Counted from the first letter of the stretch, positions 13,358-46,805 are shown. The stretch is DNA of 64,000 nt from Marsupella aquatica (GCA_973895155.1 OZ316899.1:3493455-3557454); one strand, 5' to 3'. Translations and numbers: made by a program. The notes: a model not told the origin generated them from the sequence alone.

Positions 13358-13717
13358 TGTGACACTGCCGGTACGGTGGGTAATGAGTGATTCGGCCTAA
13401 CCACGCTTAGCACGCGCGTTAGGGGTATCTTAGGCCATAATTATTAGCGTAACAACAGTATTTAGGTAGCCATTATGAGTAGGACATCATTAGTCAATAA
13501 GGGGCATTCGTGTTTGGGCTGGCGGCGGGTTGCCATTTGCACGCCCTGTTTGCGAGCGTGTAATGGACCCCCTCCCTCGGGTCCGTATAACAAACTTCGG
13601 GAGACGGCCACTGACACGCGCTGACCCGGACTGGCAGAGTGGCCGGTACACTGCAAGCATGAAAGGCTTGGCCTATAAGCGACGAGGAGACGTCGGGCGA
13701 CCAACGAGCTCTCAGGG

Positions 13718-13725
13718 TATAAAAA
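13718..13725 (+). promoter_or_regulatory. TATA box in LTR A1
   Basis: TATAAAAA ~360 nt into the LTR and ~100 nt before the conserved ATG (13824); the same motif is present in A2 and A3. Confidence 0.55.
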
Positions 13726-13823
13726 GGGGGCCAATCCTTTGTAGTGCACCAGTTCTTCAGTCCACGCGCCAGCTTTGACCCCAATTCTCTCGCCCATCCT
13801 TAGTCGCCTTCTATCTCCTCTGA

Positions 13824-16574
13824 ATGTCGCACACGATCCTTTCTAGTTCAGCCATACGATTTTGGACATAGTTCTTGTCTATCGGGGGGCACTTGGCCGA
13901 CTCATTAAAACACGCCAACCCACACCGATACAAAATTGAACGCGAGTACAAGAGAGCCATCCGCCTAGCAGGCCGCCACCACTATCTCCTTAACTTTGAT
14001 TACCCGTCCCAGAGCAAGCTTTACCGACCCAAAGAAATATCAGGGTACTTCTTCGACAAGGGCAAATACATCAGCTTTTGGGAGGCATTGCTTTGGCTTC
14101 CGGACGCGGTCTTCACTATCCCGGGCACGATTGACTTACAGCGGCACCACTTTGACCACATCCCTGCTCGGGTCCACGCCATCATCCACAACAAGTTCAA
14201 CACTACCCGGTCGACAAGGCCGTCTACACTTGCTTCAAAAAACCTCTACCGACACCTGTAGAACTTCATGGGAACCAGACCATCAACCACCGGTGCCGGC
14301 CTAGCCGAGCCCATGCCAGTACTTGCACCAACACCGGCTCAGGCTCAGGCTCCGCCTCAGCCTAGCCGATCCCCACTGCCGGTTGCCCCGCCCGTACAGG
14401 TGCGATCCGTCATCAATGCTGTGGACCTTAGCGATGACGACGAGGATACCCCACCCTTGCTCAGGTGGCCCAAAGGAGCGAGCACCCAGGGAGCCGGCAC
14501 TACATTGCCCCCTCCCTAGGCCCGGACCCGAGTAGCGGCTCTGGTGGACAACACGGTGACCGTAGACGCCTCCCCAATACTAACGGCGGTGGCACTACCC
14601 ATACCCGATCGGGAGGATGGGGAGATGTCACCCTCTCCGAGCCATCACGGGAGCCAGTCTTGGGGAAAGAAGAGGAAGGAACCCGCAGCTGTATCCGGGT
14701 TAACCATGGCCACGGTAGCCGCGGCCAAGGTGACAATGCACCGCATGGGGGAGAACGTGCATAAGAACATCCTCCACCCCAAACATGTGGTGTACTTGAA
14801 GACTCAGGGGTTCGAGCACCTCGCCTCTCTCCTCTGGAACACCTGCAGGTACTACAGGGAGGACATGACGGAGTTCATCAAGAATTATGACGACGCCCAT
14901 CAGCAGACTCGGCTACGGGGGCAGGAATATATCCCTCATAGAGGAGCGGCTCAGGATGATCTTCGGGCTACCCAAGGGAGATCAACGAGTTGAATCACGG
15001 GCTCTCGGGGGCAAAGGAGCCAAGTACCAATCCTTGAGTTTTCCCTCCGAGGGGTCAGTGGACAACGGGTTCGTGATGAGGACCTGCCTCATCCCCAAGA
15101 TAGCCGAGCGGCTGGAGTTCCAGAGGTACACCCTCCACATGATGGAACCCCGGGGCGAGATCTCCGCTGCCCAGGTTATTCAAGTCGAGAACTATCAACC
15201 TAGGAAGTGGACGTTGTACTTTGCTAAGAAGTTCCATGAAGAGATGGAACGGCGAAGGAAGGCGCTATACATCAGCGGGAAGACATATTTTGCAAGCCAC
15301 GTCAAGATCATTCTTGAGTGGTACGCCCGGGTATAGCGACGGAGACAGGAAACAGGTAAACAGGATTTTTTTTCCTATTTTTAAAATGTTGTTACCAGGA
15401 AAAACTCACTGTTACCAGGAAAAATGACAATTTGAAAATGCTCCTAAAACATGTTATTTCCAAAAAAAATCAACAATGCAACATTTTTGGCTAGCTTTGG
15501 GTGCTACTATTAGCAACGCCGGGCGCTAGCAAAAAAAACTAGTCATAAAAAAATTAGCAGCGCCGGGCGCTAGCAAAAAAATTTCATTAAAAAAAAAATT
15601 TGAAAAAAAATTCTGCCGAAATTTGGTGCCCGTACAGTACGGACACCTGACCATCTCGGCTGACCCCGCCGAGAAGCGATATCCATACGGTACGGACACC
15701 CATAGTGAAAAAAATTTCAAAAAAAGTTTTTTTTTCTCCATCAAATTTTGAGAAAAAAAAATGAATTTTTTTTTTTGCATTTTTTTTCGGCGCCGCATCT
15801 TGGCGGCCTCTCTGAGATGATGTGGCGACTGATATCAGGTTGATTGATGGAAACGACTGATAACTGATGATGTTACTTTACTCCCGGAAAAAAAACTTTT
15901 TTTTCTCAAATTTTTTTTTTTCAAAAAAACAAATTCCACCCATTTTCCTGTTACTAGTTTTTTTCCTGTTACCAGTTTCTGTTATTAAATCCTGTTTCCT
16001 GTTTGCTGTCTTTTGTAAACACCTCGTACGCCCGGTTTGATCGACGAACCCTTCCTCGGGCCAATGTAACTAAGTTGGTTCCGACTAAGTGGGTCTTCCC
16101 GGCCTTGGAGAGACGGCCTCAACCCGAGGCCCAAAGTCTGGCAGCCACGCAGGCCTCACCCACCCCACCTCCACAAGTAGTCGTAGCCGTGGCCGAAGAG
16201 GTACCCGACGAGGCTGTGATCGCAACCTTAGACGCAATCAACCAGGCCGGGCCGAGTACAGAAGTCAGGGCGGTGGTGGTTTTGACCAAACCCGAGGGTC
16301 CAGAAGACCCATCGGTGGCTATTCCAGAGGATAGCACGATGATGGAGGAGGACACTCCAGCCCCTTCCAACACTACATCCCCAGGGCTGGATGTCACTAC
16401 TCCGGCTCCTGCGCGAGTTGACGTCTGCCCGTGCCCAAATCTGGACAGGCACAACCTGGACCACCCAAAACTCTTCGTACCGGGTACATTTCTGAATGGG
16501 CTTTTGGGAGATTTCTCCCAACAGATTGCCCAGGATACCGGGGAGTTCATGGCCCGGAAGGTAGCCTACTTCTT
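13824..16574 (+). pseudogene. LTR-internal ORF of family A (copy A1), disrupted
   Basis: ORF pieces 13875-14261, 14268-14519, 14544-14993, 14887-15336 and 16003-16611 are colinear with the A3 ORF. Confidence 0.75.
15329..16025. mobile_element. 697-bp non-autonomous MULE relative (MITE-like)
   Basis: TSD GTACGCCC (15321-15328, 16026-16033); removal restores EWYARFD. Termini GGGTATAGCG..GACAG / CTGTC..GTAAACACCTC, CTGTTACCAG subterminal repeats and the AGCGCCNGGCGCT motif all resemble the 28416-39893 element. Confidence 0.85.
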
Positions 16575-18062: not shown

Positions 18063-18597
18063 CCCTAGGAGTGAGGACTATGAGATTAGTGATTTAATAT
18101 GTGAGTGACTAATTTTATGAGAATGTCCACCAAATGACTTCCTCACTTAGGTAATTGTGACGTGTCAATGAGGATGTACATCCTAAACCTATGCATATGT
18201 TTGTAATTTGTTTTGTGTTACATGCATATATGTGATGCCGCCGGTACGGTGGGTAATGAGTGATTCGGACTAACGATGCTTAGCACGCGCGTTAGGGGTA
18301 TCTTAGGCCATAATTATTAGCATAACGATAGTATTTAGGTAGCCATTATGAGTAGGAAATCATTAGTCAATAAGGGGCGTTCGTGTTTGGGCTGGCGGCG
18401 GGTCGCCATTCGCAGGCCCGGGTTGCAAGCGTGTAATGGGCCCCCACTCTTTCCCCTCGGGTCCGTATAACAAATTTTGGGAGGCGGCCATTGACACGCG
18501 CTAACCCGGACTGGCGGAGTGGCCGGTACATTGCAAGCGTGAAAGGCTCGGCCTATAAGCAACGAGGAGGCGACGAGCGATTGACGAGCTCTCAAGG

Positions 18598-18605
18598 TAT
18601 AAAAA
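18598..18605 (+). promoter_or_regulatory. TATA box in LTR A2
   Basis: TATAAAAA at the position equivalent to that in A1 and A3; ATG at 18704. Confidence 0.55.
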
Positions 18606-18703
18606 GGGGGCCAATCCTTTGTAGTGCACCAGTTCTTCAGCCCACGCGCCAGCTTCGACCCCATTTCTCTTGCTTATCCTTAGTCGCCTTCCCTCTCGTT
18701 TGA

Positions 18704-19767
18704 ATGTTGCACACAATCCTTTCCAGTTCGGCCATACAATTTTGGACGTAGTTCCTGTCTATCGGAGGGCACTTGGCCAAATCATTGAAACATGCCAACC
18801 CACGACAATACGAGATCGAACGCGAGTACGAGAGAGCCATCCGCCTAGCAGGCCGCCATCACTATCTCCTTAACTTTGATTACCCATCCCAGAGAAAGCT
18901 TTACCGACCCAAAGAAATATTAGGGTACTTCTTTGACGGAGGCAAATATATCGGCTTCTGGGAGGCATTGCTTTGGCTCCCGGATGAGGTCTTCAATATC
19001 CCAGGTACGATCGACTTACAGCAACACCATTTTGACCACATCCCCGCTCGGGTCCGGGACATCATCAACAACAATTCCAGCGCTACCCGATCTACAAGGG
19101 CGTCTACACTTGCATCAGAAAACCTCTACCGGCACCTACAGAATTTCATGGCAACCACACCATCGACCACCGGTGCCAGCCCAGCCGTGCCCGCATCAGT
19201 ACCAGCTCAAGCTCAAACTCCGCCTTAGCTTAGGCAACCCCCGCCACCAGTCGCCCCACCCCTACAGGTGAGATCCGTCATCAACGCTGTGGACCTCAGT
19301 AACAACGAAGAGGCTACCTTACCCTTGCTCAGGCGGCCTAGAGGAGCAAGTACCCAGGGAGCCGGCACTACATCGCCCCTTCCCCAGGCCCGGACCAGAG
19401 TAGCGGCTCTAGCGGACAACACGGTGACCGTAGCCGCCCCGGCCCCAATACTAACGGCGGTGGCACTACCTACACCCGATCGAGAGGATGGGGAGGTGTC
19501 ATCCTCCTCGAGCCAATCTCGGGGAAAGAAGAGGAAGGAACCCGCAGCTGTATCCGGGCTACCCATGGCCACGGTAGCCGCGGCCAAGGTAACAATGCAC
19601 CGCATGGGGGAAAATGTGCATAAGAACATCCTCCACCCCAAACATGCGGTGTACTTGAAGACTCAAGGGTTCGAGCACCTCGCCTCCCTCACCTGGAACA
19701 CCTACAGATACTACGGGGAGGACATGACGGAGTTTGTCAAGAATTATGATGACGTCCGTCAGCATAC
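18704..19767 (+). pseudogene. LTR-internal ORF of A2, 5' part
   Basis: ORFs 18773-19228 and 19268-19798; interrupted at RQH/T by element B. Confidence 0.75.
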
Positions 19768-22700
19768 TGTGATGCCTAGCCAGGAATCACTGGGCTAGTT
19801 TAAGGGGAAAAGGGAAGTGTACCCTAGAAACACCTTAGTATAGCTACATAAATAAGGAAAATATAAACAATTAAGGGTGACTATGGAACCCAAGCCGAGG
19901 CTGGAAGTAAGGACGCCAGGGGAGAGAACACGATTAGGGTTAGGGCACGCTAAGTGCCGGCGGCTAGGGGTAACCAACGGGAGCGAGAACCAGAGGAGGA
20001 GAGGGGTAAGGACCGCTCGCGAGGAATAGTAGCTCATTTGCAAGCACGAATTGAGCAGGCGACTACGGGCGGCCAACTACTGTCAACTACTTAGGCAAGC
20101 GCTCAGGGTGGGAACAGATACCGACTATCAACTCGAGAAGGGTATGAGCAACGTCAATCAAGCGGCACATTTTTGGGGATGCCTGTTCGAACGGGCAACT
20201 GAGTACATTGGGACTTACGAGGACGCAAAATCGGAGAGAGCAGCTCGAGAACGGCAGGAGCTCGCCCGATTATGGGAGCTGCAGAAAGCTGCCTTCTTAG
20301 GAGGAGAACTCATCAAGGCTGAATTCCTGTGGACGCCTACTGGCAACGAGCTAGACGACCTGCTGTTTTGCGAAGACAGAGTCGTCGGCATCCGAGAAGC
20401 CATCAAACGCTGCAATGACATACACTGGGAGTTGAAGGGTAGCACGGAGGGGTGGACAAAGGCAACCGTGCTAGGAGAGACATCCACGACAGCCGAGATG
20501 AAGAGGAAGGGGAACAACAACGAAGAGGCCACCCCGGCAAAAAGAACGCGGTCGGTGGCACCAAAGAAGCCAGCAGAACAACAGAGCAGGAGGCAAAGAG
20601 AAGCCGAGGAGGAGGAGGTCGACCCCATCAATGCCATTCCAACAAACGATGACACCTGGAAAGGTTGGGCGGCGACCCTACCGGAGGAAGTGCAATTACA
20701 CTTTGCACGGGAGGAGGATGCATGCTTTACAGCCATGCAGACCAAGAAGTACCAAGGCTTCATGGCCGGATCCGGCTTGGAAGCCTTTGTAAGATTACCA
20801 TGGCTGAAGCCGAAGGTGCAGGACTCAGACTTGTTAGAATTCATGGGATCATGGGAACCCGAGACCAATTCCACGAGGGTGTATGGGAAGGATTTCTATC
20901 TCACTCCCCGGGTGATTGCTGAAGTGTTTGGCTTGCCGATGGGTAATAAGACCAAGGTTGATACCAGGAAGACCTTACCTGACAAGGAGTTTCGGTCGTT
21001 CCCAGGACCATCAACAAAGAATGGCTTCTTCCGGAACACCTGCACCAACCCGCACATCGGAGAGATGATCGATTTCTTGCGGGTGACCATGCACTGTAAC
21101 TTGCCGAGGGCAGAGATTGGCAAGGCTCAGGTCTACCTGGCAGAAAGGCCAGACCCAAGCCGGGATTACAACGGGTACCTCCTCAACCAACTAAAGAAGA
21201 TCTTGAAGGAGGAACAGCAGGTGATTGGCGTGGGAAGCGTGTCCCGGCTTGGCTATCACATGCCGCTGTTGTGCCGGTATGCCAGAAGTCAAATCTTTGC
21301 CCCAGTACTTCCCCTATCGACAAGAGCACCGGAGGAGGTCCCGGAGCAGAGGCTGGCACCAGAGAAGCCCAACCAGCCCGACAGTCCGACGATCGAGCAG
21401 GTGTTTAGACCAAGGAAAGAAGACTTGCCGATGCAGCAGCCAGGCATGCAGAATCTGTTGAAATTGCTGGAGAACGGTTCCGGCAACGGCAACAGAACCG
21501 GCACCGATACAGGACGCTGCCCCAGAAGCCGACCTAAGCCGGATTACAAGGGAAAACCCCTTTACTGGAGTCAAGGAGAGAGGGAGGCCGGAACACGAGC
21601 CGGGAGTCCAGATGTATGTAGGAGCCTCAAGTCCCGAAGCTGAGGAAAAGCAGGCCGTAGCTCCCGGCCACGACAAGGAGAACAAGAGATCAACACGGAA
21701 GCCGGAGGAGGAACCAAGACCGGTGAGAGGTGAAGCCGTGTTCACAACAAAACCAGGAGAACAGCGGGAGAAGCCAGTAGTCCAAGCCGAGGAGGAGGCG
21801 GTAGAGGACTACAGCAATGATGACTCCGACTACGGGTCGGATCATCATGTTCCAGGAGTAAGGACCTGTGGCCGGTTCATCCCCACGCTCCCAAGAGTAG
21901 TTCGAGGAGACCCAAGCCAGCAGAGCAGCCCCAAGTCTCCCCCACCAGATGTCGCTCCCCCGAGCTTTGACGGCATAAAACAGACGGCGCAGGAATTTCA
22001 GGAGCAAATCAGGGAGGAAGAGGAGGCAGCCCTGGCTAGGGAAAAGGATTTACCAGGAGGAGAATGGCCAGAGGACATCAGGCGGCTTGCAGAAAAACAA
22101 AGCAACCCTCTTGCCACCGTAGAAGAAATCCGCAAGACGGCTTGGGAGCAGAGGCCGCGGTGGTTGATGCCGATGACTTCTAGTTACTCCACCTATGCTA
22201 AGGATAGAGCCATGGAGTACGGGGAAATGTGTGGAGAGCTGGCGCTCAGCATCTTTGGGGAGGAAATGGAGCAAGGACCCTTTTTCCAGAGGGAGATGTT
22301 GGAGAAGCGCCAATTAGAAGAAGCGGTGGCTTTGGAAAGAAGCAAGAAGGACGAGGTCATCCGTCGGCTTAGGGCAAGAGAAGCCGAAATCAAAGACCTG
22401 GGGGCGGCCAAGAAAGCCCAAGATGAGCTGTGGATTAAGCGGCATGAGCTAAATATCATGCAGGGCCAATTGGATACCGCACAGTCTGATAATCGGATTA
22501 TCGAGAATAAACTGACTCGAACCCAAGGAGAGTTGGCCGATGCGATCAAGGAGCGAGAGAAGTGGAAGCGAGAGCTGAGGGATGCAGAGGAGGCCCACAT
22601 AACGGCCAACAACCGGGCCATGGCGGAGACCCAGAGAAGGGAAAGGGCATTGAAGGGGGAGCTCAAGGTTATCCGCGGAGCCCTTGAGAAGAAGGAGGCC

Positions 22701-24502
22701 GAGTTAGGGAAATCCTATCAAGGGATTATTGCGCTGCAGCAAGAGCTTGCGTCCCTAACTGCCAGCTTCAAAGCCGACCTGCGTGAGAAGGACAATATGC
22801 TCGATCAGACTTACGCCAAGATGAACCAGATGGAGTCTGTCATCATTGCAGAGCTTGACAAGGAGTTAAGAGCGACCCAGGAGGAGAGAGCTGCGTTTAA
22901 AAAGGAATTGGAGGAAGCCCAGAAGGAGCTGGAGGAGGCGCGCAAGGACCTGGACAAAGTGCAGGAGGAGTTGGAGGAAAGCACGCGGAAGCTAGAGAAC
23001 TTACAACGACGAGCCGACAACCAAACGGAGCGGCTGAAGAAACAAGCCGCAGTATTTAAGTGCTTGGCTTCATCAGGGCCAACTCAAATTGAGGCCACTA
23101 AGTTACCAGGAGTGGTACTGGCCGAAGGACAAACCGCGCCATTTGCACCAGTGCCAGAAGTAAGTGAGAAGGGGAAGGGGCCAGCTGCCGAACCAGAAAA
23201 GAAGAAGAACAGAAACCTTCAGGGTCAAGGAGTAATACGGCTCCACAGGCCGTGGTGACCATGGAGGTAAATCCAGCACCGACCTCAGGCAGGATTACGG
23301 CAGAGGATCCAACTACCCTAGAAGGGGATGACAAAGCCAAGGCCAGGATACTCGATAATGAAGCCGAGGTACCCAATCTGCCACTTAAGTGTGCACGGGA
23401 GGCCGTAGTCGAGGCTGAGGCCGTAGCCAAGGCTGATGTTGAAGCTGATACCGTAGCCGATGCCGGGGGTGGACCCAGTCAGGCCGATGGAGAGTTGACT
23501 CAGTCAAGGACAGGTAATCTATCAGAGAACAAACCTACGGCAGTGGCTGAGGAGGAAGCATTGGGGGCGTCCACTGAGGGACAGACACCGCTGCCATGAC
23601 GGTGGTGGAGGGCCGCTCCTTTCAAGGAGGGTGGACGTGGATGGAGGAGGCGTGAGTGGGCAGGGCGGGCTCAGATCTCTAAGTTTAGGATTAGGATCAG
23701 GACCAGGAGGCGGCCCTGACAATTAGCTTAGTGGGATTGCGGTTCCACTGGTAAGAGCAACACTTGTACTCCTGCCTCGCTGTACATAGGTAGATTCAGT
23801 TAGGTAGATTAGGCTTACGTTGCAAAGAATTAGGCAGATCCACTACCAGGATAAGTACCTGGGCAGCGGGGAGCTCAGGGCCTCTTCTTTAGCAAGTTTT
23901 TAGTTGCACCAGCCGGGCTGGTATCAAGTAGTAAGAGAAGCTCTCGGTTAGTCATACAATGACCCTTGTGTATATTCATGTTTCCTCATGCCTAAGAGCT
24001 GAATAGAGTTGGCCTCACAGCTTAGTTCGCAGAGCTTGTGTATGAGACGTACTGTTTGTATGGCAAGTGCATGGTATGACTCAGTCAGAAGGAGTCATTT
24101 TGCTATTTGTGTGTCGCATTAACTTGTGTGAAGAGTGCCCACATCAACTAATAGATGAAGGAAAGTAAGCAAGGGAGTGAGAGTTGGATGTGTCGAGCTG
24201 AGAGAGGTCTTAGCGGCTTAACCAAGCCTATTGGGGATCATTCCGGCGGCGGAATCCAAATATACCTAACAAGAAGGAGGGGAAGACAAGGGAAGGCCTA
24301 GATTAGGCCGACTACGTATCTCATGACCCGATGAAGGATCTGTCCAGTATATGTGTGTAAAATGTTAATAGTAGTAGTAGAGGGAGGTTAGCAGCATCCC
24401 ATGCCACTAAGCCGCGAAAATGGCCTCGCCAAGCGCGAAACCTGCAGGAATCGGCTTGTGAAGGGGGTTTCTGGGGTTTAGGGAGCCATGGGACGCACCA
24501 CA
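19768..24502 (+). repeat. 5' LTR of element B (4735 bp)
   Basis: TGTGATGCCTAGCC...GGACGCACCACA; matches 42047-46800. Confidence 0.95.
20051..23599 (+). pseudogene. Long ORF(s) inside the B 5' LTR: conserved plant-retroelement accessory domain plus coiled coil
   Basis: ORFs 20051-21643, 21612-23258 and 23252-23599. GLEAFVRLPW..DLLEF..TRVYG..LTPRVIAEVFGLP domain followed by a heptad-rich E/K/L region. Confidence 0.7.
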
Positions 24503-24506
24503 TTTT

Positions 24507-24523
24507 TGGCGCTAGATGGAGGG
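24507..24523 (+). other. Primer-binding site of element B
   Basis: TGGCGCTAGATGGAGGG lies 4 nt after the LTR; TGG start is complementary to tRNA CCA. The tRNA isotype was not determined. Confidence 0.75.
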
Positions 24524-24571
24524 GGCATTTCTTAAGCCGTGAGATATGAAGTTAGGAAAGAAGCGTAGGTA

Positions 24572-26377
24572 ATGACTAAACCTACGCCAAGGGAGGAAAG
24601 AGCGATTCAACGGGAGAGAGCTTGTCTGCAGCAGCTCGCCGAGTGGCATGATACACAACGACTGAGAGGGGCAGAAAGAGCTGGTAGCTCCGAAGCTGGA
24701 AGTGGCGTCGAAGAAGACATACCAGAAGAAGAGTCGATAGGAAGAAACGAGTACCCAACCGACATGGGGGAACCAGAGGCACGGCCAGACGAGAGGCCAG
24801 GGACTAGACTGAGCCAACGGTCGCGCATTCATTACAAGGCATTTCATGGGAGAGGAGATGAGGATCCGGACGAATGGTTGAATGATTTCGAGGGAACCGC
24901 TGCAGCAAATGGAGAATCGGCCATCAAGATGCAGATTCTTCCCGGCCTGTTCAAGGGTGAGGCTAGGCCTTGGTACAGAGCATTGGATGTGGAAGATCAA
25001 GCCATCTGGGATACCTTCAAAACACTATTTGTTAAGGAGTTTCGACCCATTGGAACTTCAGAACTAGCAGTGCTGAAGTTGGGACGACTTCGGTTCAAGG
25101 AGAACAAATCCTTCAGGAAGTTCTTGCAACGCTTTCAGAAACTGGTAAGACGTACAAAGACCAATGCATCTGAAGGTATGCAACTTCAATGGTTGGTGAA
25201 TGCTTTGCCACAGAAGATGAGTTTTGCAATTAGGAAGGAGAACCCAAAGACTTTAGCCGAGGCAATTAAAGATATTCAATTATACATTAATGCAGATATC
25301 ACAAGCCGGAAGAAACAACTTAAGTCTGAGAGTTCCTCATCGGAGGAAGGATCACCCCATAAGAAAAAGGATAATAAAAAGAAACACTCTAAGAAGTCAA
25401 GAAGTGATAACTCAAGCTCGGATAGTGGAAGTAGCAAGAGTGAGTCATCCTCTAGTTCTGAAGAAGAAAAAACTAGGAAAAGGAGGGAGGATAGCTCTGT
25501 ATGGTGTGCCTTATGTTATAAAACCGGACACCATAAAGATGCATGTCCTAAGCTCAATACTAGTCATGTTCGGCATGTGGCTGAAGTCAGACCATGTCAG
25601 GGAGAAGTAGAGTACTTTCTAGGAGATGCCGCTGATAGTGTTTTCGGCATCAGTGAGACTGGAGCACGAGACCTATCCAACCGACCTGCATCTCTCTGGT
25701 CAGGATTAAGGAACAATCCAGGAGAGATGTATCCTCGGATTATTCAGAATCCGTCAGTACCTCCTAGGCTGAATGTGCAAAGATTTGCGGCATGCTATAA
25801 TTGTGGTCAACCTGGCCATTTTGCTAGAGAATGCCCGAATGCACGCAAACAAGGTGATGGATAGCCAGCTCAGCTATGTATGGGATGCCGACAGGAGGGT
25901 CACATGCTAGGACAATGTCCTACTTGGTTGGCGGGATTGGCCGCAAATCATAAGCTCTTGCCGGTCAAGGTCTTGCCGCCAGGTACTACCCCAGGAGGAG
26001 TTCAAATCAACCATATCAAACTCGGATGGCAAGTGGATGCCGAGGCAGAATTTGGACCATCTGATGATGAGACCGAGGCCCTATCAACATTTTCAGAAGA
26101 GGATATGGATCGTGATTGCTACCGGGTCTCTACTCGATCAACCAGAAGGAAGGAAAGGTGGGATGGGCTGGCCAAAAATAAAGGGAAGGTTCAGGAAGAA
26201 AGATCGACTCTTCGTCAACATCAACGGAAGGAGAAGCAAGGGCACCGTCAACACAGGCAAGCCATGAGCCCACCAGTGAGCCCAATCCTTCACAGGACAG
26301 CGACTTCAATCGAGACCACCCTAAGTTGTTCTACCCATCTATCACGGCTAGTGTTAAGGAACAACTGCGAGAATTAG
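24572..26377 (+). pseudogene. gag of element B with three CCHC zinc knuckles
   Basis: EDPDEWLNDFE..A..N, L.GEARPWY, WLVNALP; knuckles at ~25505, ~25793 and ~25877. In-frame TAG at 25862. Confidence 0.85.
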
Positions 26378-26401
26378 AATACTGAAGCCATAGCCAAGGA
26401 T

Positions 26402-28415
26402 ATGAAACGAGCAAAAGCATTGTTTGCTTCGGAAGATCCAACGGCTGTGGGGACTAGCGTGACACCACTGGAGAAGCCGATAGTTCCCTATGACCTGGCT
26501 AAAGATGTACTAGAATCTAGAGTCTCGGCAACAGTAGGTCAACTATTGAAAAATAGCCCGTACTTCCGGAAGCAGTTAAGAAAAGCGATCCTCGGCAAGC
26601 CAAGATTACCCAAGGTAGCGACCAGATCCGACGTACTAATGATAGAAGAAGATCAAGGAGCCCCAGCATTACCATTAGTGATTCAAGGAGAAATATTACT
26701 ACGGGTACCCATCGATGGAGGATCAGGGGTATGTATTATGATTGATTCAACAACAAAGGGGTGGGGTCTAACACCGGAAATGACTGGAAGAGTGTTGAAC
26801 ATGGCCAATGGGTATCAGGTCATTCCCACGGGAGTGTTACCCGGCATCAAGACAAAGATAGGAGGTATCTTCTTTAGCATTAACTATGTAGTAATGAAGC
26901 CGGTAAATCCTACGTCATTCCGGCTATTGATTGGTAGGCCGTGGCTATACCTAGCCAAGGTAATAAAGGATTGGGGTAAGAAGGAGTTCACTTTTGGGAC
27001 CCCCTCTATCACGGTATCCTGGGATACCAAGGATGACCACAGAAGAAACATCAGGGAGGTAGACGGGTACGACAGTGGACTGGAATCAGCCGATGAGGTA
27101 CGATGGTTAGAATGCCTCGCTGACCAAACCGAAGAAAGTGTCTTTGGACCAGAGGTATCCCCCAGCGGACTATGGCAAGAACCTATGGAGAATGACTTGG
27201 AGGATTGTGAAGACGAAGCCGAGGACTGCTTTGCCATAGAGTCCACCTTTTTAGCTGCAATTCCGGAGGAAGCACAAGAAGTAAGCCAATTGGATGAAAC
27301 AGCTAAGGGGGGAGCTATACCCGTGATGGTGGATTTTCCTCAGGCGTTGTGGCAAAGCCGGCAGGATCCACAACGCCGTCTATCATCGGCAAGCAATTAA
27401 ATACCAAGGGATCGGCATATAAGCCGATTACGAGGGCAGAACAAATTGAGGCCCTATTAGAAGCCAGGAGAGCACAGCGGCCTGACCCTCAGGAGGAAGA
27501 GGTGGAAGAGATGCACAGACACAATCCAGAGCCGAGGCAGGAAGGGAAGCCGACTACCAATTCAAAACCGAATAGACCGGCAAGGAGACAATCTGTGGGC
27601 ACCAAGGGAGAAACCAACTCGGCTAGTACAACCGAGATTCCAGTTTATGGAGGTATGAGACTGGAGAGGCTGGAAGCCAAGCTGGACCCGAATTTGAAGA
27701 AGCAGATTAATATGATCCAAGCACGGCAATATCGGAAGCTCGACTTAGGAGAAGGAAGGGAACTGAACTTAGGGAGAGACCTAGCACCTAAGCTTGAGAA
27801 AGAGATCAGTGACTTATTGATTGAATTTCAGGATGTGTTTGCATGGAGTCACCAAGATCTAAAGGGAGTAGATCCAACATTAGGGGAACATCGAATTGAT
27901 CTCATGTTAGGAGCCAAATCATTCAGACAACCAATTTGAAGGATGAATCCTAAGTATTCCCTGATGGTCAAAACAGAAATTGACAAATTAGTGGACGCCG
28001 GATTCATCACTCCAGTCCTGCATTCAGACTGGGTGTCTCCAATTGTGATAGTACCTAAGAAAGCTGGACCCGATGGTCAACCCAAGATCCGTGTTTGTCA
28101 GGATTACAGAAAGTTGAATGAGGCTACGTTGAAAGATCATTTTCCTTTACCCTTTACTGATATGGTGTTAGACATGGTAGCCAGTCATGAACTATATTCA
28201 TTCATGGATGGGTACTCTGGTTATAACCAAATCAGGATTAGGCAGGAGGACCAAATCAAGACGGCCTTCATCACGGAATGGGGGATCTATGTCTTCAATC
28301 GTATGCCATTTGGACTCTGTAACGCACCAGCTATGTTTCAACGATTGATGGTGAACATTTTCCATGATTACTTGAGAAAGTTCATGGAAATCTTCATTGA
28401 TGACTTTGCAGTATT
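26402..28415 (+). pseudogene. pol of B, 5' part (protease and RT N-terminus)
   Basis: VPIDGGSGVCIM and LLIGRPWL (protease); WVSPIVIVPKK, RVCQDYRKLN, MDGYSGYNQI, MPFGLCNAPAMFQR and FIDDFAV (RT). Cut by the MULE right after the YxDD motif. Confidence 0.92.
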
Positions 28416-29128
28416 GGGTATGATAGCCATGACAGAAAACAGAAAACAGAAAACCTGTTACCAGGGGTTTATTTTCTGTTAACAGGGAAATTGTACCTGT
28501 TACCAGTAAGCTTGTCCCTGTTACCAGTTTTGCCTGAACTATAACGTGCATATCCACCACTCTAAGGTGCATATCCACCACTCTAATGGCATAATTTTTG
28601 GGGGGGCAATAAAGTTTAAAACAAACAATTATTTTGTGCCATCCGATGGATGAAGTGTACTATCAATCCTCCATTGACACAACAATTTATTGTAGAAGAT
28701 AAAAAACATGGTATTAGGAGTGTGCCTAAAGAAACATTCATGCAAATCAATCTATTTTCATCGCCAAATAGTGACCCTTAGAGTGGGACCCACCATAGCA
28801 CATGTCAATCGTGGAGTCCAAATGAACCCAATCTAAAGGAGTTGATTAAATGGACCTTGTAACGTCACAAACAAATGACAAATCACATCCTCGAGGCTTT
28901 GAAGACAGTAGACAATTTAATCAACTTACACATTTTAAATAAAACAAGAGGTCATTCTTCCACAATGCACGTACATAATGAAGCAATGAATATCCGGTTT
29001 CCTAGAACCAGCGCCCGGCGCTAACCAACAAAGTCTCAATAAAACAACTAAAATATCCGTTGGAAAAAGACAAAATAGGGAATAACCGTTATATTGAACG
29101 ACGACCTATTGGGCAGTTTCGATCTCTC

Positions 29129-32100
29129 TCATAAGCCATTCAAGTTCTGCCTCTCCAGCACAAGCCTGACTTTGCCTAAAGTCAAAATAGGTTGGCTACA
29201 AAGAGTCGACTCCTCAATCTCAAGTTTGAAAACATTTATGTACACCCAGTATAGATGTTTGCAAGGCATGTACGACTTGCCACGCGAATGTCGGAGGAAG
29301 AAGTCTTCACAAGAGCAAGCGGGGAAGATACAGATTTGGACGAAGTATGTGCTTGGTGATCGATGGTTCTCATGGGTTCGAATTCGAAATTGCTTTCCAA
29401 AAGCATTTCCGGTCTGAACATTCCATTCCCCATCCAAACTCATCACTTCTTGTCGTGCAGACTCCATTCGCTTCGTGTGACCCACAGTGAGATTAGACCG
29501 AGGCCTTGAGTTCCTCCCATTCCGACTACCAAGTCGGAGATTCGGCTCCAAAAACCTTATTGTTTCTGGGAACACGTTAACATTTATCCTGAGGTCAAAA
29601 GCAGATGGCACAGATCGACTCAATCCTGTTGTTCGCGCTAAGACAAGTCCTTGCTCTTCCAGGAATGTAATTTCAGAAGGAGACAGGCTCGTACCCTTCA
29701 GAACAGGCAAAATGTCAGGAAAAGGAGGAAGCTTCTGAACACCACGACGCGGATGACTCTTGTAACACGCTTGGTTCGGGCAAAACCAAATCATTTCGGA
29801 GATGGGTTCGCCCCTGAAGAGACGATGGCCCTTCACGACAATTCCGACAACACCTTCAGACGAATGGAAGCCAACCTTCTTGATACGATTTCGACACTCA
29901 TCGCGATCCGAACTCCCATTCAGTGTACCATTGCATTGCGGACCTGCTCCATACTTCGATGTCCGTCGCAACTGCCACTGCCCCGCAGGGACATCCTTCT
30001 CTAGCACAATCGTGCGTGGAAGTTGATTCTGAAGTGCTGTTGGGGCACTGATCGGAGGTTTTGAGGATCTTGTTGTTCGGGTTGTTTGAGGAGTATAGTC
30101 CAGTGAATTAGTATCACTCTCTGATGTGACCATACCTGAGAGATTCACCGCCTTTGTGACAGGATGATCAGAACTTGAGGGAATAGAAGAAAAATCAGTT
30201 CTGTTCAGGTTCTTCCTTTTCAAACCACGAGTATTTGGTGTGGTTATTAGAACGGTGTCATGCCGATGGGAATCTTGTGGAGAGACAGTCCCAGTTGCAT
30301 GTCCCTTCCTCTTCATTGACTTCGTCATTATATCTCCATTCAGGGGAGTACTTCTTTCCAAATTGAATTCTGCTGCGTTAGATAGAAGCATATTAGTCGC
30401 TTCTTCAAACAATCTTGGTGAACCTGCTTGATCGGCGGAATGGAACGCCAATTCCCATATAGTTGGCCCCTTCCCCCGGTTCAAGCCTTTACGGTATGCA
30501 CTGTATCCGGCAACTTGAGACAGAGCACGGTTTTGGTCAACTTCGCAAGCTTCATAAAGACCGACCTTTTTCTTTGTAGCTGAGGCTTTCATGGATGCAT
30601 GCCTTGATTCTGACCCTGTACAGTTGGGGATCAAGGCACCTTCCTCAGCGCTTTTGCTCTGCCATACGAAAATGTCAACCGTAAGTAGTATTCTATTACC
30701 AGCGCCCGGCGCTGGCAACATAAATATGTAGAACAGGCCTGAAATACAATTTCAATGTTTAATACTGAATTCTAACTACATATTGGCTTCAATTTCTTGT
30801 ACTACTTGTTTTGACGTGTATGGAGAAAATAACCAGCGCCTAGCGCTAATATGAAGTTGATGAACATTATAGTCTAGATAGATGGATGCCTTACCACTCG
30901 AATAAAATTGCCCCACTGGCGCCAGCGAACAACCCACCAAGACATCCAGCTTTGCAGCATCTTCAGCTTTCCGGGGACACAGTTTCCTGATTGCCACCAC
31001 ACAACAATCTCTCGGGACACCCGGTATGCTGCCACAAATGATGGAGCATTTCTCAGTTTCTCCCAAAGTCTTCGATGCTCCGATTGACATTCTTCCAGTA
31101 CTCCTTCCTTGGAATGACGATGAAAAGATTGATAAAAGTGAAATGCATCAGAGCGCTCCCTCTCCGGGTCCGGGTGTCCACCCAAAAAAACATTTCGCAC
31201 TGCATTCCATCCAGCTTGTGCATTGTCGGCCATAAATCCTTGGATGACAACCTCCTGAAGTTCATTTTCTTTGCAAACCTCAATCATCACTCTCCATGCC
31301 TTTTCAAAAGACTCAGTGTCTTCACCTTTCAACTCGCATGTGAAAATTGTACACAATGCACGGAAATTGTGGTCGTAGACGTGTGCGCTGAAAGTAAACC
31401 AATCCGTGGTGACACGCTGCATCACATCAAAACTTACCCAGGCTCCTTCGAGTCTTCCACCCGGTTGCATCTGCCTCAAAAGATCCACACCGGAACCGTG
31501 ACCTTTCACGGTCATTTTAAAGATGTGAGGCCTATCGTTCTGACATCCCTGACCTGGAAGCAAATACCTCTGGAGAAACGACACATGAATCCTCCTCTGC
31601 ATTTGCGAGAGAAAATCTAATTCACCCGACCTTTTTGGTCTATCCTAACGCTCCGACAAAGAGATGCAAACTTCTGCGGAGTGGAAAGGACCATCAAAGA
31701 CTTCCATATTTCAGTTTCTTCGATATCGACCATGTCGTCAACATGTTCGCAGAGAGATTTCACTAAGGACCCTGTAGCAGAATTCAAGATCCCTGCCGGT
31801 TTTGACAGAGGATTGGCTTCATGTTTTTTTTAATTAGATCCTCAGCTATCTTCTCCGCACTCCTACAAAAGGTTTTTCTACCTGGATGGTTGTGCTCACC
31901 TATATGAATTGCCAGGCGGGACATATGACTACATGTTTCCGCATCAAGTAATACTTGGGGGTACATGTAAAACAAACGGGCAGGGCAGTACTTCACACAA
32001 AAAGGAATCTGTTCGCAGTAATGACAAACAACACCTCCCTCTTCGATGAAAGATCCCACAGCATACTGACCACTGAGCTTTGGAGTACCCTGCCATGCCT

Positions 32101-32931
32101 TAGCATTTGCCTTCTTCTTCCTTTGGAAATAGTCGTAGGACTTGTTCCTGCATTCAATGAATCCCGTACAGGTAACCTTCCCAAACTGCCAAAGGTTTTT
32201 AGGATGAACAGTTGCAGTTGTTGGAAATATGCGTGTCCAAATGTAACAATCTTTGGCACGATCCATGTCCATAAGCCTAGAGCCTTTAGAGAGCATCTTA
32301 TCAATGGGCGGCAACTCAAACACGACGTTACCATTGTACTTAGTTGGCAGACAGGACACTTGTTCATGCCTGAAATCACCCGCTGATATGAACCGTGACA
32401 ACTCACTATGACCAGTTGATTTGAGTAACGTATCCATCGCACTGTGCCGGTACACGACCTCCAACTGCTTAGAGCTTCCCGGAGTCTCAACTTTCACGAT
32501 AGCAGGGAGCGGGCTTTTCTTCTTCGACGGTGGACTTAGAGTACAATCTCCATCCTCACTTGAAGAAATCTCAACCACATCACATGGAACCGGCGGGAAA
32601 CTGGACAGTCCTGCATGCTGTCTTAAATGAACCGAGTACGAGATCCCTGCGTAGAGATGCCAAAACCGTTACCGTCATCGACATTGAACGTTGCAGCATC
32701 CTCGATATCATCAATGGATTCGAGCTCTCGAACAATGGCCTCAATGTCATTCACCTTCAAATCAAATCTCCCGCAGAGATACCTCTCCCGGACCTGCTTG
32801 TACGTATCTTCCATGGGGACGGGGATAGTCACAATATCTTCAGAACCAAATCGAGAAAGAACGATAGACCGAGACATGGTGAACAAAAACAAAAACCGAG
32901 GGCTATAGCGTTTGAAAGAAGAAAAGTTCAT
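29129..32931 (-). CDS. MULE transposase (GCM/WRKY-like Zn domain, DDE core, SWIM finger), multi-exon, two apparent frameshifts
   Basis: CTGFIEC..C..C..C.ARL..RLAIHIGEHNHP; FDVMQR, FMADNA..NAVR.VF, FHFYQS, SESRHASMK (candidate D-D-E); CSCEDF..PCKHLYWV. The 5' start is uncertain. Confidence 0.8.
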
Positions 32932-33807
32932 GGTATTGTTCAGCTTATATCTGTCGAACCTGGGAATTTGACGTTAACCGATCCGTTTGTATACGACATA
33001 AAACATTGACGATGGAGGATCCGTTGGCACCATAAATGATTTTTGTCATTTTTTCCCCGAGAAGTCCGGATGTCAGACACGAACATATTGCTAAAAAGAT
33101 CACCAACCTTACTTAAACAGACCATAAGATATGACAAGGTATTGTCAAATTTTAGTAGCGCCTGGCGCTAACTAAAATACGCCACTAAAAATGTGTCTGA
33201 AATCTCGACATTCCAAACTAGCGCCCGGCGCTAGTATAGAATAAATTCCCTGAAAATGAACATTATGACCACATACCAGGTGGTAATTGGGAATAAATGG
33301 TGCCTTCAAAGGATGGTTTTGATGGATTATGGATGATAAATGAACATTTATACTAGCGTCGGGCGCTAGTATTACATTTGAGAAATATTTCTCCGTAAGC
33401 GATGTATTGAAGGATACTTTAATAAAATATGGGGGTGGAAAGGCCGAAATTTATGTCATAGCTCCTTCAAAAAAGACCTCTAAATTTCTTCTAGTTTATA
33501 CTAGCGTCGGGCGCTATTATAAGCATACCCTCTAAATTGTTCACCTTGATGGTCATCATTAATGCTAGCGCCCGGCGCTAGTATTGATATGATGTTAGGA
33601 AATGTCTTTAACGGTAACATTCAACGGTAACTTATGACTTCCGTGTGTGTTACGCATCTTCTACCGTTTGATTTTGGTAATTAAACCTTCCGTATATAGA
33701 CGTTGGAAACCGCCAAACATCAGAGCTAATGGCTTTCCTCTAGGTTATGTCATCCTCCCGCTAGAATATATTACACGTTCAGAGATGATTATAGTTCCAT
33801 AATTTCA

Positions 33808-36800
33808 TTGTACGATAGTTCGTACGCTTCTAGAAGGAAGACGATGGAGGTATTCCCCTCTTCTTCCAGAGGGTATAGTGCGGTTCCTGACCAGGAGCGA
33901 GCTTATTCTGAATCTTCGCAGTCTTCATTTACTGGTTCAGTCTATACACGTCGTGTAACTCGTTCCTCAAAGTTGTTGCCGCTCACTTCTGTCAGCGGTG
34001 TTTTGGGTCCAAATCCTTTGCGAAGAAAGATGGACAACATAGACACAATTGCGATCCAGGATGTTGCGGATTGCGCGCTTGCTGAGACTGATCTCATTTC
34101 GAAACATGTCATGTCTTTTGGAAAGGATTCTCGTGGATTTGACAAGGAGCCGCCTCGAATCCCTCTGTGTCGATTGGTTCACATGGAGGTGGTTTGTACT
34201 CTGTAGAAAGACAGCTCTTCCATCGAGAAGCTGAAAGACTCTTTTCGTAGTATGGGTTACAACTCTTCGATAGGGATGCGTTTCTATGTGCAGCCAACGG
34301 ATGAGAATGGAATTGTTCTGACCTGTACCCAGGACATTCGTGATTCATGGGATCCAATATGGCAATTGGAGAACGAGAAGTTTGAGGCTGAATGCGAGGC
34401 TGACCCGGATTTTCTCGTCTTGAAGGATAAGATGTTCTCTGTATTCGATGGAAATCACAGGCTGTACTCCTGGACGCTTGTAACAGAGGAGAACCCGGAC
34501 AATCCAAAATATCATCCTTGTGTGCTCTGTACAATATTTAAAGGAGACAAGGGATCTCTCATTGAAATTGAGGCAGCTATGCACACCGTGAATCAGTAAG
34601 TTCTCATGATTTCCAGTTCTTTCGTTAAATCTTGTGAGTGCTGTATTTACTAGCGCTCGGCGCTGCTTATACATGAATTGTTTTTCATTGACTCTTACTC
34701 TCAACGTTTGTTCGTGTAGGCTTGGCCAAGCAGTTGTAGAGCCTTCCTGGATCCTGGATGCGGACATAATCAAACGAATTCTGGCGCATGACCTTGAGTA
34801 TTACAGTAAACTGATTGACCCGAGTAATTTCAAGAAGTTTGAAAGCATTCGGCTGAAAACTCGGAAGGGGTCATGGTATACGAAGAAGATGCCACAAGAA
34901 GCACTTGTTTACATTCTTTGTGAGAATAAGATAAAGTCGTACTCGCATCAATTCAAACTCGACATGGAGGCAGCGGAGGCTCAAGGGAGTCCATGGTCGG
35001 CGGACGAGATTTCAAAGCGGCATGCGGCCATGATGAAAGACGCAACCAAAGATTGGGCAGTGAAGTCTTCAAAAATTACGCCCTTATTAAGTCCTGAATT
35101 TGAAGATTTCCTCAGTACATGTGCAGAAATGTATGCTGTCACAGAGAGAAACAAGAGAGAGAAGAAGCCTGACACCGTTGTATGTACGATGGACCGCGCA
35201 CGATTGTTCACCGCTGTTTCTGCTATAGACCCAAAGTTACGAAGCACTTTACTTGTGGCACATTGCAATCCTGAGCTGCGGAGACAGTTTTTTCACCCAG
35301 CAAGTGTTAACGATGATCCAGTCAAATAGTGGTGCCACACTTGGATCACTTGGAATAGTGTGGAGGGAATTGCTGCTGGCATGTTACATTCATGTCTACG
35401 TGAAGTTGAGCAAACCATGCCCGCGAATAGATTGGAAGAGTGGAATTGTAGTTCGTTTGATGATCTAGTTCAGTTTGTTACAAATGAATTCAAGAGATTT
35501 GGTGATTCCGTGAAGAATAAGTTCTTTCACACTATGTGGCCTTCAAAGTACCCTGACAAAGAAGATTACACCCAGAGAAACCAGAAGCGAGCGAAGAGGT
35601 TTGTGTATAGGTTCTACATGCACATGGAGGTAACCAAACCTGATTACTTCTGGGCATATCCTGCAGCTTTTATGAAGTGGATTTCAATAAGTGAAGATGA
35701 TGCCTTGGCTGATTTGTACTCTATGTACTCCACGGAGGGCATATTTCCTCCGAGACCAATGACAGAATGGGAGAGAACTCACTGCCCCTAGTATCTAGAT
35801 ACAGATAGATGGGATTCTCCTTTTGATCAAAGGGAAAAAGATGCCTTCCATAAGCTTTCAAAGTCTCAGATGCCAGCAAAACTTGTGTCCGACATGAAGC
35901 AGGGTCTACTTGACGATGTAGACAAGTCTGCCACAAACTTGCAAACTATCTGTGAAACAACTGTTGTGCATATGGACCGAAGTCGCAAACCTCGCGCGAA
36001 AGCCAAAGCGGAGCTAGCAGCACCGAGCGAGTCTACTAAATCTGGAAAGAAGAGTAAGTATTGCTATCCATGATTTTGGCGTTGGCAAAAAATATTCTGT
36101 TGAGGGTATTCTCTTTCTTGGTTATTAGGCTTCGGTTGCGACTTAAGTGAATTGCATTTGGTTAGCGCCAGGCGCTAGCTTCTTTCAATACTTTAAAAGT
36201 ACTTATTCTAACTACGACCTGGTTATATTTTAGGAGGGAGGAAGTCTAATACGGTGGGAACGGGAGATACGAAAAAGGATGCTACACCTGAAGTTTCTGA
36301 GGCAAACACGGGAGCTCGATCGGACCCCATTACTCCAGTCGACAAAGGGAAGGTTATAGTTCCTATCGACGCCACGAGTACCAGGAAGAAACGAAAGAGA
36401 GCTGTCGAAGGTGGACAATCTTTAAGGGAGAGTGTTATAGCTTCTGGTTTCCAACGTGAAGTTGGAAACTTCAAAACAACTGTGTCTCGCCATTGCATGG
36501 TTGAGACAAGCCTTTCTGAATTTTTTGACTCGACGTTCAACAAGGAGGAGAAGCCCGAGTGGGTTAGTGATGTGGAGAAATGGGGAAAAGACCTCGTTAA
36601 GTTGGGATTTAAAGAGAAGGGAGTTGTTCGGTGGGGAAAAGTAAGACCGTTTGGAGTGGATGCCGGCTTCATTTACCTACCGACCGGGTTCAAACCATCT
36701 ATCATTGATAAGAAGGTTCCTAAATGGAACATTCCAGATCACTCAATGGCTAGATCTTTTTTCAAATCCATGGATCCATTTTTATCAGATGATGGGTTCC

Positions 36801-37510
36801 TTGTAATTCTACACAATGGGGAGTACGATCCCATGTCGCAAGTCATTGCTGCCTGTCAGGAGTCAAGGAAATTTCAGTGTATATGCTCGCATAATGTTGT
36901 GATGTCTGACCCGATGTATGCGGCAAAGACAGACCAAGAGATGTTTACCCTCAGGCTCAACATATTTGGCCGAATTAATGGGAAATGTAAAATTCCCAAA
37001 GACCCCAAATTTCGGCCGCTGTCCATCAGTGAGGACCCTTCGGTTACCAATTTGATCGGACTCTCTTTGCTCAAATCAGATCCATTCCCGCAAATGGAGT
37101 TTGTTGGAAATGCTCGTCTGTCTGTGGGTTTTATGCAATCTGTTATAGAGCTTGTCACACGGCCTCGTGATATTTTTATGGATTGGACTGCTGGGGCTGG
37201 AAGCTCTTACATTGCTAGCGACTTCTCTGGACGATTTGTACTCGAGATAGAACACCGGAAAGAATTTATTGAAACCGCTTCAAAGGTTTTCATGGATTTG
37301 TTGTCTCCCAAAGAGATTGCAGTGTTACCTCCACTTGTTCCTACTGCCGACAGAAAAAAGAGAGATAAGCTTCGGTCGGTTCTCAATTTTGATTCTGATG
37401 ATGAATCGAGTGAAGGTGGAGAGGAACAAGGTACAAGAAACTCCGAGGAGGAAAAGGGAGAGCGTCGTGCAGCTGCAGATGAAACCGATAGTGATGACTC
37501 TTCCGAGTAA
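33808..37510 (+). pseudogene. Multi-exon MULE cargo gene: ParB/Srx-like domain, unknown helical region, N4/N6-DNA-MTase-like domain
   Basis: IPLCRL..VV(C)TL..IEKLKDSFRSMGY...FSVFDGNHRLYSW. GT-AG introns at ~34597-34718 and ~36055-36231. C-terminal FMQSVIELVTRPRDIFMDWTAGAGSSYIAS..SGRFVLEIE. A few in-frame stops. That all exons form one gene is inferred. Confidence 0.65.
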
Positions 37511-37573
37511 TGTTCATAAACTCGTAAGCTTCTTTCTCCATTCCCGTCAATTCATAACATTTCTTTTGTTGTT

Positions 37574-37924
37574 TTGGGGAAAGGCGCCTTACAAAATGGA
37601 CTTTGTTATATCAGGTCAGAGTGGAATGCAAGGAGACGATTCAAACTACGAAGGAAGATCGCGAGACACAACGTAGAAACACCGGAAAAACCGTTTGTTC
37701 TTCCCTCCTATGCAAAGAAAGCCGCAAGGAAAGCAGAAAGTGCAAGGACACTTTGTTGGGAAAACAAAGGTCTTCGGTTACGAAGGGGTGTTGACCGAAA
37801 GTTCATTAAACATCCTTATGTTGATGACTTCTCCCGCAGCCAGTACGTAGATGATGAGGCTGTGTCCACGGACAGATCCCAGAGTACAGATTCTGGTTCC
37901 GACTCAGAATCTCCGGAACCGTGA
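37574..37924 (+). CDS. Hypothetical MULE ORF or exon (basic then acidic)
   Basis: 116-aa ORF on the same strand as the cargo gene; no recognised motif. Confidence 0.3.
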   Translation: MGKGALQNGLCYIRSEWNARRRFKLRRKIARHNVETPEKPFVLPSYAKKAARKAESARTLCWENKGLRLRRGVDRKFIKHPYVDDFSRSQYVDDEAVSTDRSQSTDSGSDSESPEP

Positions 37925-38194
37925 GAAGTAGTGGGTAGTTGAGGCTAAATCTTTTAGCAGCGCCCGGTGCTTGTAACATCTGTATTATTTCCCTCTGCTG
38001 AGGGTCCTTTTAAATTGTTGATTTCTCTCTACTTGTTGATTACTTTTGACTTCTGTTCTTTACAAGCGCCTGACGCTCGCCAAATGGAATCTCTAAATGG
38101 CCGTTTAGTCTTTGTCATTTCCTGTCAACGATCATCGTCATTGGATACCAACTGCCATTTGGATTGTGTTCTTTAGTCAGTCGTCAGAAAGCCG

Positions 38195-38590
38195 TTGGGG
38201 ACCATAGTTTCGGGATGATGATTCCATAGTTTAGGGACCGGGCGGAAGGGACGACTATAGTTTCAGTTTAGGTTTGTTCGGGACGACGAGAGTTGGGGAC
38301 GTCGATAGTTGAGGACGACGATAGTTTTGGGAGGACGATAGAACGGGACGATAGAACGGGACGATAGAACGGGATGATAGAACGGGAGGGGAGACTTTGT
38401 TTCGGGAGGATGATAGAACGTGACGATAGAACGGGATGATAGTTCGTTTGGGAAGACTTTGTTTCGGGAAGATGATAGAACGGGACGTTAGAGCAGGGCG
38501 ATAGAACGGGACCATACCTGTTACCAAGGCGAAGATAGTTTCGGGAGGCAATAGAACGAGACGATGATAGTTTGATGGTCGTTTCGGAAC
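38195..38590. repeat. Minisatellite of GATAGAACGGGAC (13 bp) and GATAGTTTCGGGA variants
   Basis: Direct tandem and interspersed copies are clearly visible. Confidence 0.85.
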
Positions 38591-46800: not shown

Positions 46801-46805
46801 CATAC

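Follow-up and report, generated by a model that had tools for sequence, protein, structure and literature searches.

Can a retrotransposon keep a gene inside its long terminal repeats (LTRs), and what would such a gene do for it? The question is raised by element B in a 64,000-nucleotide stretch of Marsupella aquatica DNA (GCA_973895155.1 OZ316899.1:3493455-3557454; hereafter the window, with positions counted from its first letter), in which both 4.7-kb LTRs contain a long coding region, here called the LTR gene. We propose, with a probability of about 0.5 for the reading as a whole, that B is a decayed Ty3/gypsy element, that each of its LTRs holds a broken accessory gene that is selected in relatives, and that the product is a predicted DNA-binding protein resembling VANC and plant mobile domain (PMD) proteins, likely acting in trans against the silencing of its own family.

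Element B is a decayed Ty3/gypsy element with 4.7-kb LTRs

Self-comparison of the window revealed that 19768-24502 and 42047-46800 form one long direct repeat with 97.6% identity over 4,754 columns. Both copies begin with TGTGATG and end with CACCACA, the 3' copy is directly preceded by a purine tract, and the primer-binding site (PBS) behind the 5' copy is one that we take to be of the tRNA-Asn type (Table 1). B interrupts an older LTR, whose halves form its host flanks. Each half aligns with another copy in the window, C (62157-58141), and the two alignments overlap only at the CATAC target-site duplication (TSD); without B, the host LTR reads as one continuous stretch. The Pfam domains of the internal region occur in the Ty3/gypsy order (gag, zf-CCHC, RVT_1, RT_RNaseH, Integrase_H2C2, rve), while the protease was recognised as a motif by eye and had no Pfam match. 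With its TG..CA ends, TSD, PBS, polypurine tract (PPT) and gene order, B is a Ty3/gypsy LTR retrotransposon, now dead, and the 4.7-kb repeats are its true LTRs. The limits that an earlier note on this DNA had drawn from the same signals stand.

An 11.5-kb Mutator-like insertion interrupts the reverse transcriptase (RT); without it, B measures about 15.5 kb. The closest named relatives of its integrase are Calypogeia fissa proteins (53-69% identity), followed by proteins of Marchantia, Riccia and Adiantum. These affinities point to a leafy liverwort as the probable host. Pfam searches matched no chromodomain in the pol pieces of B or in the RNase H-integrase frame of C, nor any second RNase H family, whether in the protease-RT interval, in the RNase H-integrase interval or behind the integrase.

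The two LTRs differ by 93 substitutions at 4,735 aligned sites (79 transitions, 14 transversions; Kimura two-parameter distance 0.020), spread evenly at 1.8-2.1% per region, and by two indels of 1 and 18 bases. This even divergence of 2% with its transition bias argues against a segmental duplication or assembly artefact hiding a short true LTR, as do the location of TSD, PBS and PPT at the 4.7-kb limits, the continuity of the host LTR, a solo LTR (A) with its own TSD around 3.95 kb, and matching inverted termini at a PPT beside the integrase in two metagenome relatives, L005 and L009. Although relatives such as metagenome contig L004 have a 1-kb LTR behind a homologous gene, and B, unlike C, has a purine-rich tract after the stop of the gene, a duplication or artefact of this kind is scarcely credible.

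The LTR gene of B is broken in both copies

The coding region lies wholly within both LTRs and in sense with gag-pol, as the earlier note had stated; from ATG 20144 to the stop at 23599 it fills 73% of the LTR. The starts proposed there, 20051 and 42330, are in-frame TTG codons, and it is ATG 20144 that aligns with the N-termini of the five homologous proteins keeping that end (among them P0124 and P0197, near-identical). The coding region is real, but the single open reading frame (ORF) of about 3.5 kb that had been described exists in neither LTR. In both copies an upstream frame (20033-21643; 42312-44012) overlaps a downstream frame (from 21462; 43741) at an offset of one base. In addition, one base is missing from the 5' copy at ~23207, and a stop interrupts the 3' copy at 44566.

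Contigs of four public runs were aligned to 21150-21950 of B. Contig depth falls 27- to 87-fold past 21474, where 13, 13, 15 and 3 contigs of the four runs have loose ends, and the loose letters, judged by eye, continue the upstream frame into the downstream frame. Forty of the 190 variant sites found were listed. Of these, 16 precede 21474, and 11 of the 16 fall on third positions of the upstream frame; nine follow 21700, seven of them on third positions of the downstream frame; the 15 between 21474 and 21700 favour neither frame. On this pattern, B's LTR gene reads as one long family gene that would carry a lesion in B's lineage. Because the frame break is common to both LTRs, the lesion likely predates or accompanied the insertion of B, gene conversion being the alternative.

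A homologous LTR gene is under purifying selection in a second family

The layout is not confined to B: it recurs in a second family represented in the window by the 3.95-kb solo LTR A, the 3' LTR C and the truncated LTR D. B is itself inserted in the LTR gene of A, and C lies behind an integrase with a PPT motif like B's. The LTR gene of A, C and D matches the core of B's gene within the window (tblastn E 1e-17, 26% identity over 223 columns). Comparison of C with A or D gave dN/dS values of 0.10-0.49 in 10 of 10 segments, all bootstrap intervals lying below 1, against 0.59-3.56 for the same comparison in shifted frames. The LTR gene is therefore under purifying selection in the second family, which bears out the earlier claim of a real gene.

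These values contradict neutrality, and with it the idea of a passenger, in which a piece of some other element or gene would have landed in one ancestor's LTR and been propagated neutrally from then on. Such a passenger would suit the state of the gene in the window, where it is broken in all five LTR copies and where B was inserted with a break common to both its LTRs. Homologs nevertheless occupy the same place in two families whose LTRs have no blastn match to each other at E 1e-10, others lie downstream of the integrase in sister clades, and no TSD or inverted repeat was seen by eye around the gene. A passenger origin is very unlikely, and the LTR-located gene in B is almost certainly a real feature.

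Relatives carry the gene on either side of the LTR boundary

The earlier note had named short LTRs in other family members as a sign of local duplication. Long LTRs are not local to B: contig joints at 24502 and 19764 place its LTR ends in other copies, L005 is similarly built (below), and the LTR gene has 2.2-4.5 times the summed contig depth of gag-pol in all four runs, a weak support since depth is not copy number. A short LTR with the gene internal does, however, occur in L004.

A profile search with the core found 75 proteins; of 10 looked up, three are from Calypogeia fissa and one from Riccia sorocarpa. One homolog cluster holds an unbroken 906-residue protein with the full layout of N-domain, linker, core, linker and coiled coil. 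Metagenome contigs scanned for integrase contributed 40 loci; in six of them, an ORF behind the integrase matches the core profile at E<=0.01. These six ORFs and that of L005 align as one family, which compares with the window cores at a profile probability of 85 (95 for L004 alone).

L004, a circular contig (1-10852), is an apparently complete relative with a 745-codon extra ORF between two purine tracts. Its order is pol, a purine tract without a TG after it, the ORF, a GTTCGCG-type motif with PPT, TGTG, about 990 bases and the PBS. The LTR start was placed from the motif because the two LTRs are collapsed in the circular contig; so placed, the LTR measures about 990 bp and the extra gene is internal and upstream of it, the ordinary Athila layout. 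The GTTCGCG-type PPT of L005 and L009 immediately follows the integrase, and the bases after it are an inverted match of the LTR end before the PBS (9/9 and ~12/13). Their LTRs are at least 1.5 kb and at least 2.3 kb long, respectively, and the L005 ORF starts inside the LTR. In L004 the gene lies outside the LTR and in L005 inside it; the pair offers a simple route for LTR growth from 1 kb to more than 4 kb. An integrase tree, built from window, metagenome, liverwort and fern rows only, yields B+C, the L005 group and the L004 group as three well-supported clades at an open fork, so the direction of change, into or out of the LTR, is not fixed by the tree.

The integrase frame crosses the PPT into the first LTR bases in both B and C (42011-42058; 62123-62190, minus strand). 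Calypogeia protein P0004 ends with a peptide like this read-through, and an integrase-adjacent PPT is therefore likely in Calypogeia too.

Predicted fold and clade-specific words

The best fold matches of the LTR-gene core were VANC21 of Arabidopsis VANDAL21 (PDB 9LNJ, 9LNK) and the plant mobile domains of MAIN/MAIL1. A DUF1985/PMD-like fold of the VANC kind, with a basic patch, is thus weakly predicted for the core, with a coiled coil downstream. Pfam gave no match of the window proteins to ATHILA (PF03078) or Transposase_32 (PF20167); two of 34 homologs match ATHILA/Transposase_32 at E 0.006, short of the cut-off, and the ESM Atlas leads to Transposase_32 and ATHILA clusters reach 0.87, under the 0.9 mark.

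Short CG-containing words differ between clades. TCCGGA is strongly enriched in seven contigs of one clade (L003, L005-L009, L011), with a density of 2.8-9.7 per kb and, in L005, 56 occurrences against 4.7 expected; in L004 it is AGCGCT that occurs 14 times against 0.6 expected. In B, AGCCG occurs at about double the mean of synonymous shuffles in the LTR gene and in gag-pol alike, a level attained in 0 of 200 shuffles; among about 500 five-mers it ranks 4th and 10th in these two parts, whereas in C it is 385th and 129th. The two coding parts of B correlate in their CG-word scores (rho 0.29, p 0.002), while no correlation was seen between B and C, or within C. The words were picked after inspection of the data, and C has no clear word; the statistics lend modest support to a sequence-specific binder. 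The observed/expected CpG ratio of B (0.57-0.64) is little above the window background (0.44-0.47).

U3 or R: where transcription would start

A gene inside an LTR may lie in the unique 3' region (U3), the repeated region (R) or the unique 5' region (U5), depending, as the earlier note rightly said, on where transcription starts. B's LTR contains a single TATAAA, upstream of the gene at LTR position 95, and in all three second-family copies the sole TATA consensus is likewise upstream of the gene (positions 360, 361 and 368); the LTR tails of B, A and C contain none, and a T/TG-rich stretch follows the gene's stop. This arrangement fits a giant R of 3-4 kb spanning the gene, in which a single 5' TATA promoter would make both RNAs: stopping in the 5' LTR would yield the accessory mRNA and read-through the genomic RNA. 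Such an R, which would alter the transcription step only, is quite possible. Against it, the LTR tails that follow the gene, 903 bp in B and 891 bp in C, are each about the size of the whole ~990-bp LTR of L004. A TATA consensus also precedes the LTR end by ~100 bases in L004 and by ~150 in L009, but is absent from the corresponding place in L005. There is also the precedent of mouse mammary tumour virus (MMTV), in which, according to the available sections of PMC9412291, a U3 gene has its own U3 promoter. We slightly favour U3 for the gene of B; U5 is improbable. Under either U3 or R placement, promoter, gene and 3' signals would stand in one LTR, and a solo LTR would be a complete expression unit.

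A 14-bp word is identical in the otherwise unlike tails of B (24241-24254) and C (58311-58324, minus strand) and has hairpin potential with TTCCG arms; it is perhaps a packaging or 3'-end signal.

A candidate anti-silencing role and its main competitor

The proposed anti-silencing mechanism would begin with plus-strand priming at the PPT directly behind the integrase, by which everything downstream, the gene included, would be copied into both LTRs. In L004 the equivalent PPT is behind the gene and the LTR is ~1 kb, so LTR size would depend on which side of the gene the working PPT lies. Transcription of the gene would run from the TATA promoter near the LTR's 5' end to the T/G-rich tail. The protein would oligomerise through its coiled coil and bind a short family-specific CG-containing word, candidates being a GCCG core in B, TCCGGA in the L005-L009 clade and AGCGCT in L004; binding would lower methylation or other silencing at these sites. 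With one frame break common to both its LTRs, B would have inserted without a working copy of its own, and other family copies, solo LTRs included, would supply the protein in trans.

The same predicted fold, basic patch and coiled coil would equally suit a replication accessory encoded by a real gene inside the LTR, such as a transactivator of the LTR promoter, an integration-targeting tether, or an RNA or particle chaperone. Roles like those of retroviral accessory proteins have been proposed for plant extra ORFs in the available part of PMC7264820. Also in favour of this reading, B sits in another family's LTR, and four contig joints link B-family LTR ends to sites inside B-family LTRs. Clade-specific CG words that span coding and non-coding DNA suit methylation protection better than a promoter-only role, and CpG ratios are 0.83-1.06 in the seven TCCGGA-clade contigs against 0.30-0.63 in four L004-clade contigs, even if B departs only slightly from background. 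We regard the replication accessory as possible but doubtful.

Comparison with known systems

By their sequence features, B and C appear to be an Athila-like lineage with the extra gene inside the LTR. They share with Athila (OTA non-chromoviruses) the Ty3/gypsy order, the lack of a chromodomain or second RNase H match, the 5-bp TSD, long LTRs and a sense extra ORF downstream of pol. In Athila that ORF lies between pol and the 3' LTR, as in L004, whereas in B and C the PPT is directly behind the integrase and the ORF is in both LTRs and in solo LTRs, not internal. Tat/Ogre and Retand elements likewise have an extra ORF with a globular domain (PMD-like in Tat/Ogre, Transposase_28 in Retand) followed by a coiled coil (available sections of PMC4408406), but this ORF is upstream of gag, or antisense downstream of pol. 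The Tat group (TatI-III, Ogre, Retand) is moreover defined by an added RNase H (aRH, archaeal-type; PMC6317226, in part), which had no match in B.

VANC21 is among the best fold matches of the core, forms a coiled-coil oligomer (PMC13547354), as the LTR-gene product may, and has family-specific short words in its target element (PMC5735166); of the candidate words here, those of the L005-L009 clade and of L004 are strongly enriched, that of B about twofold, and none is clear in C. VANC is, however, encoded by VANDAL, a Mutator-like DNA transposon, whereas B's gene is in a retrotransposon LTR. The MMTV sag/naf ORF is about 1 kb long, against 3.5 kb in B. It too lies inside the LTR with its own U3 promoter (PMC9412291), but MMTV is a mammalian retrovirus with an unrelated protein, and U3 placement in B is a candidate only. 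The rice elements Retrosat2, RIRE3 and RIRE8 combine LTRs of >3 kb with an extra ORF; in the available text of PMC3485330 this ORF0 is described upstream of gag-pol and queried apart from the LTR. Phygy and Selgy are short and without extra ORFs (PMC6317226, in part), unlike the ~15.5-kb B with its 3.5-kb gene.

In the sections available, extra ORFs of plant Ty3/gypsy elements are sited upstream of gag or between pol and the 3' LTR (PMC7264820, PMC6317226, PMC4408406, PMC11728184, PMC3485330, PMC1142308), which agrees with the earlier note's statement that those of Athila, Tat and Ogre usually lie outside the LTRs. The function of these ORFs (Athila 'env-like', PMD, Transposase_32) is called unknown in the same portions of PMC7264820, PMC4408406 and PMC6317226, and PMC12844716, as far as available, leaves the question open for Athila. 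The survey in PMC6317226 admitted LTRs of up to 6 kb, its main text makes no mention of Marchantia, and any data on ORFs within LTRs may be in its supplements. Titles and abstract openings in the literature yielded no plant retrotransposon with a gene wholly inside the LTR and no retrotransposon VANC-like factor, and neither appears in the accessible portions of PMC12859917, PMC12844716, PMC12885004 and 10.1101/2022.12.06.519325.

Features of the window

Table 1. Positions of element B, its LTR gene and the second-family copies in the window
Feature	Position	Strand	Remarks
5' LTR of B	19768..24502	+	4,735 bp, TG..CA ends
3' LTR of B	42047..46800	+	4,754 bp
Left TSD of B, CATAC	19763..19767	.	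read from sequence
Right TSD of B, CATAC	46801..46805	.	read from sequence
PBS of B, TGGCGCTAGATGG..., TGG-led	24507..24524	+	after 5' LTR, 4 T between
gag (Retrotrans_gag, zf-CCHC), protease-like region, first part of RT of B	24569..28415	+	several stops and a frame change
Mutator-like DNA transposon within RT of B, no part of B	28416..39892	-	9-bp TSD, one mismatch
Remainder of RT, RNase H, integrase of B	39893..42058	+	integrase frame crosses PPT into first LTR bases
GTTCGCG-type motif (conserved) and PPT of B	42011..42046	+	directly at integrase end
LTR gene of B, 5' copy, ~1,150 codons	20144..23599	+	broken near 21474 and at ~23207
LTR gene of B, 3' copy	42423..45897	+	frame break of 5' copy (~43750) and stop at 44566
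LTR gene parts (5' copy)	N-domain to ~20455; then basic linker; VANC/PMD-like core ~20645-21298	+	predicted
LTR gene parts, continued (5' copy)	acidic/proline linker; coiled coil ~22300-23050; low-complexity tail	+	predicted
Non-coding LTR tail of B, 903 bp	23600..24502	+	T/TG-rich stretch ~23970-24120; 14-bp word common with C
Candidate LTR-gene promoter, only TATAAA in LTR of B (LTR position 95)	19862..19867	+	putative
Solo LTR A, left part, second family	18231..19767	+	TSD ATATA 18226-18230; TATA box 18598
Solo LTR A, right part	46801..49217	+	TSD ATATA 49218-49222
3' LTR C, second family, 4,015 bp, behind integrase and PPT	58141..62155	-	TATA box at LTR position 360
LTR gene of C, ~885 codons	61688-59032	-	two stops, one frame break
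Truncated LTR D, second family	13358..16574	+	interrupted by small insertion ~15330-16025

The Mutator-like element in B's RT contains a 432-codon frame (36212-37510, plus strand) resembling N6/N4 DNA methyltransferases (Pfam PF01555 at E 0.0078; ESM Atlas 0.94 to N6_N4_Mtase clusters), and AGCGCC is enriched across the element (22 against 2.2 expected). The insertion in LTR D is non-coding, is flanked by a 9-bp duplication and has ends resembling those of this element. A protease-like frame of another retroelement, identified by eye, lies at 12353-12997 (minus strand), adjoining LTR D. The window further contains a CACTA Transposase_21 fragment (2714-3340, plus strand) and tandem arrays at 16610-17973, 51970-52320, 54123-54356 and 55618-56591 with units of ~410, 80 and 27 bp.

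Implications

LTRs pass for non-coding DNA and solo LTRs for dead ends, yet a selected gene here occupies about three quarters of the LTR, in at least two families and a sister clade, and annotation that masks LTRs as non-coding would miss such genes. The predicted VANC-like fold and the clade-specific CG words together provide a direct test, with a predicted word, binder and methylation effect. A bolder version of the anti-silencing proposal, which we hold only tentatively, is that bryophyte Athila-like elements moved a VANC-like anti-silencing gene into the LTR by a change of PPT. Each insertion would then have two copies, and solo LTRs would be complete counter-defence genes demethylating the family in trans, each clade with its own co-evolving CG word. 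If so, the host's main route for removing LTR elements would leave an anti-silencing gene in place.
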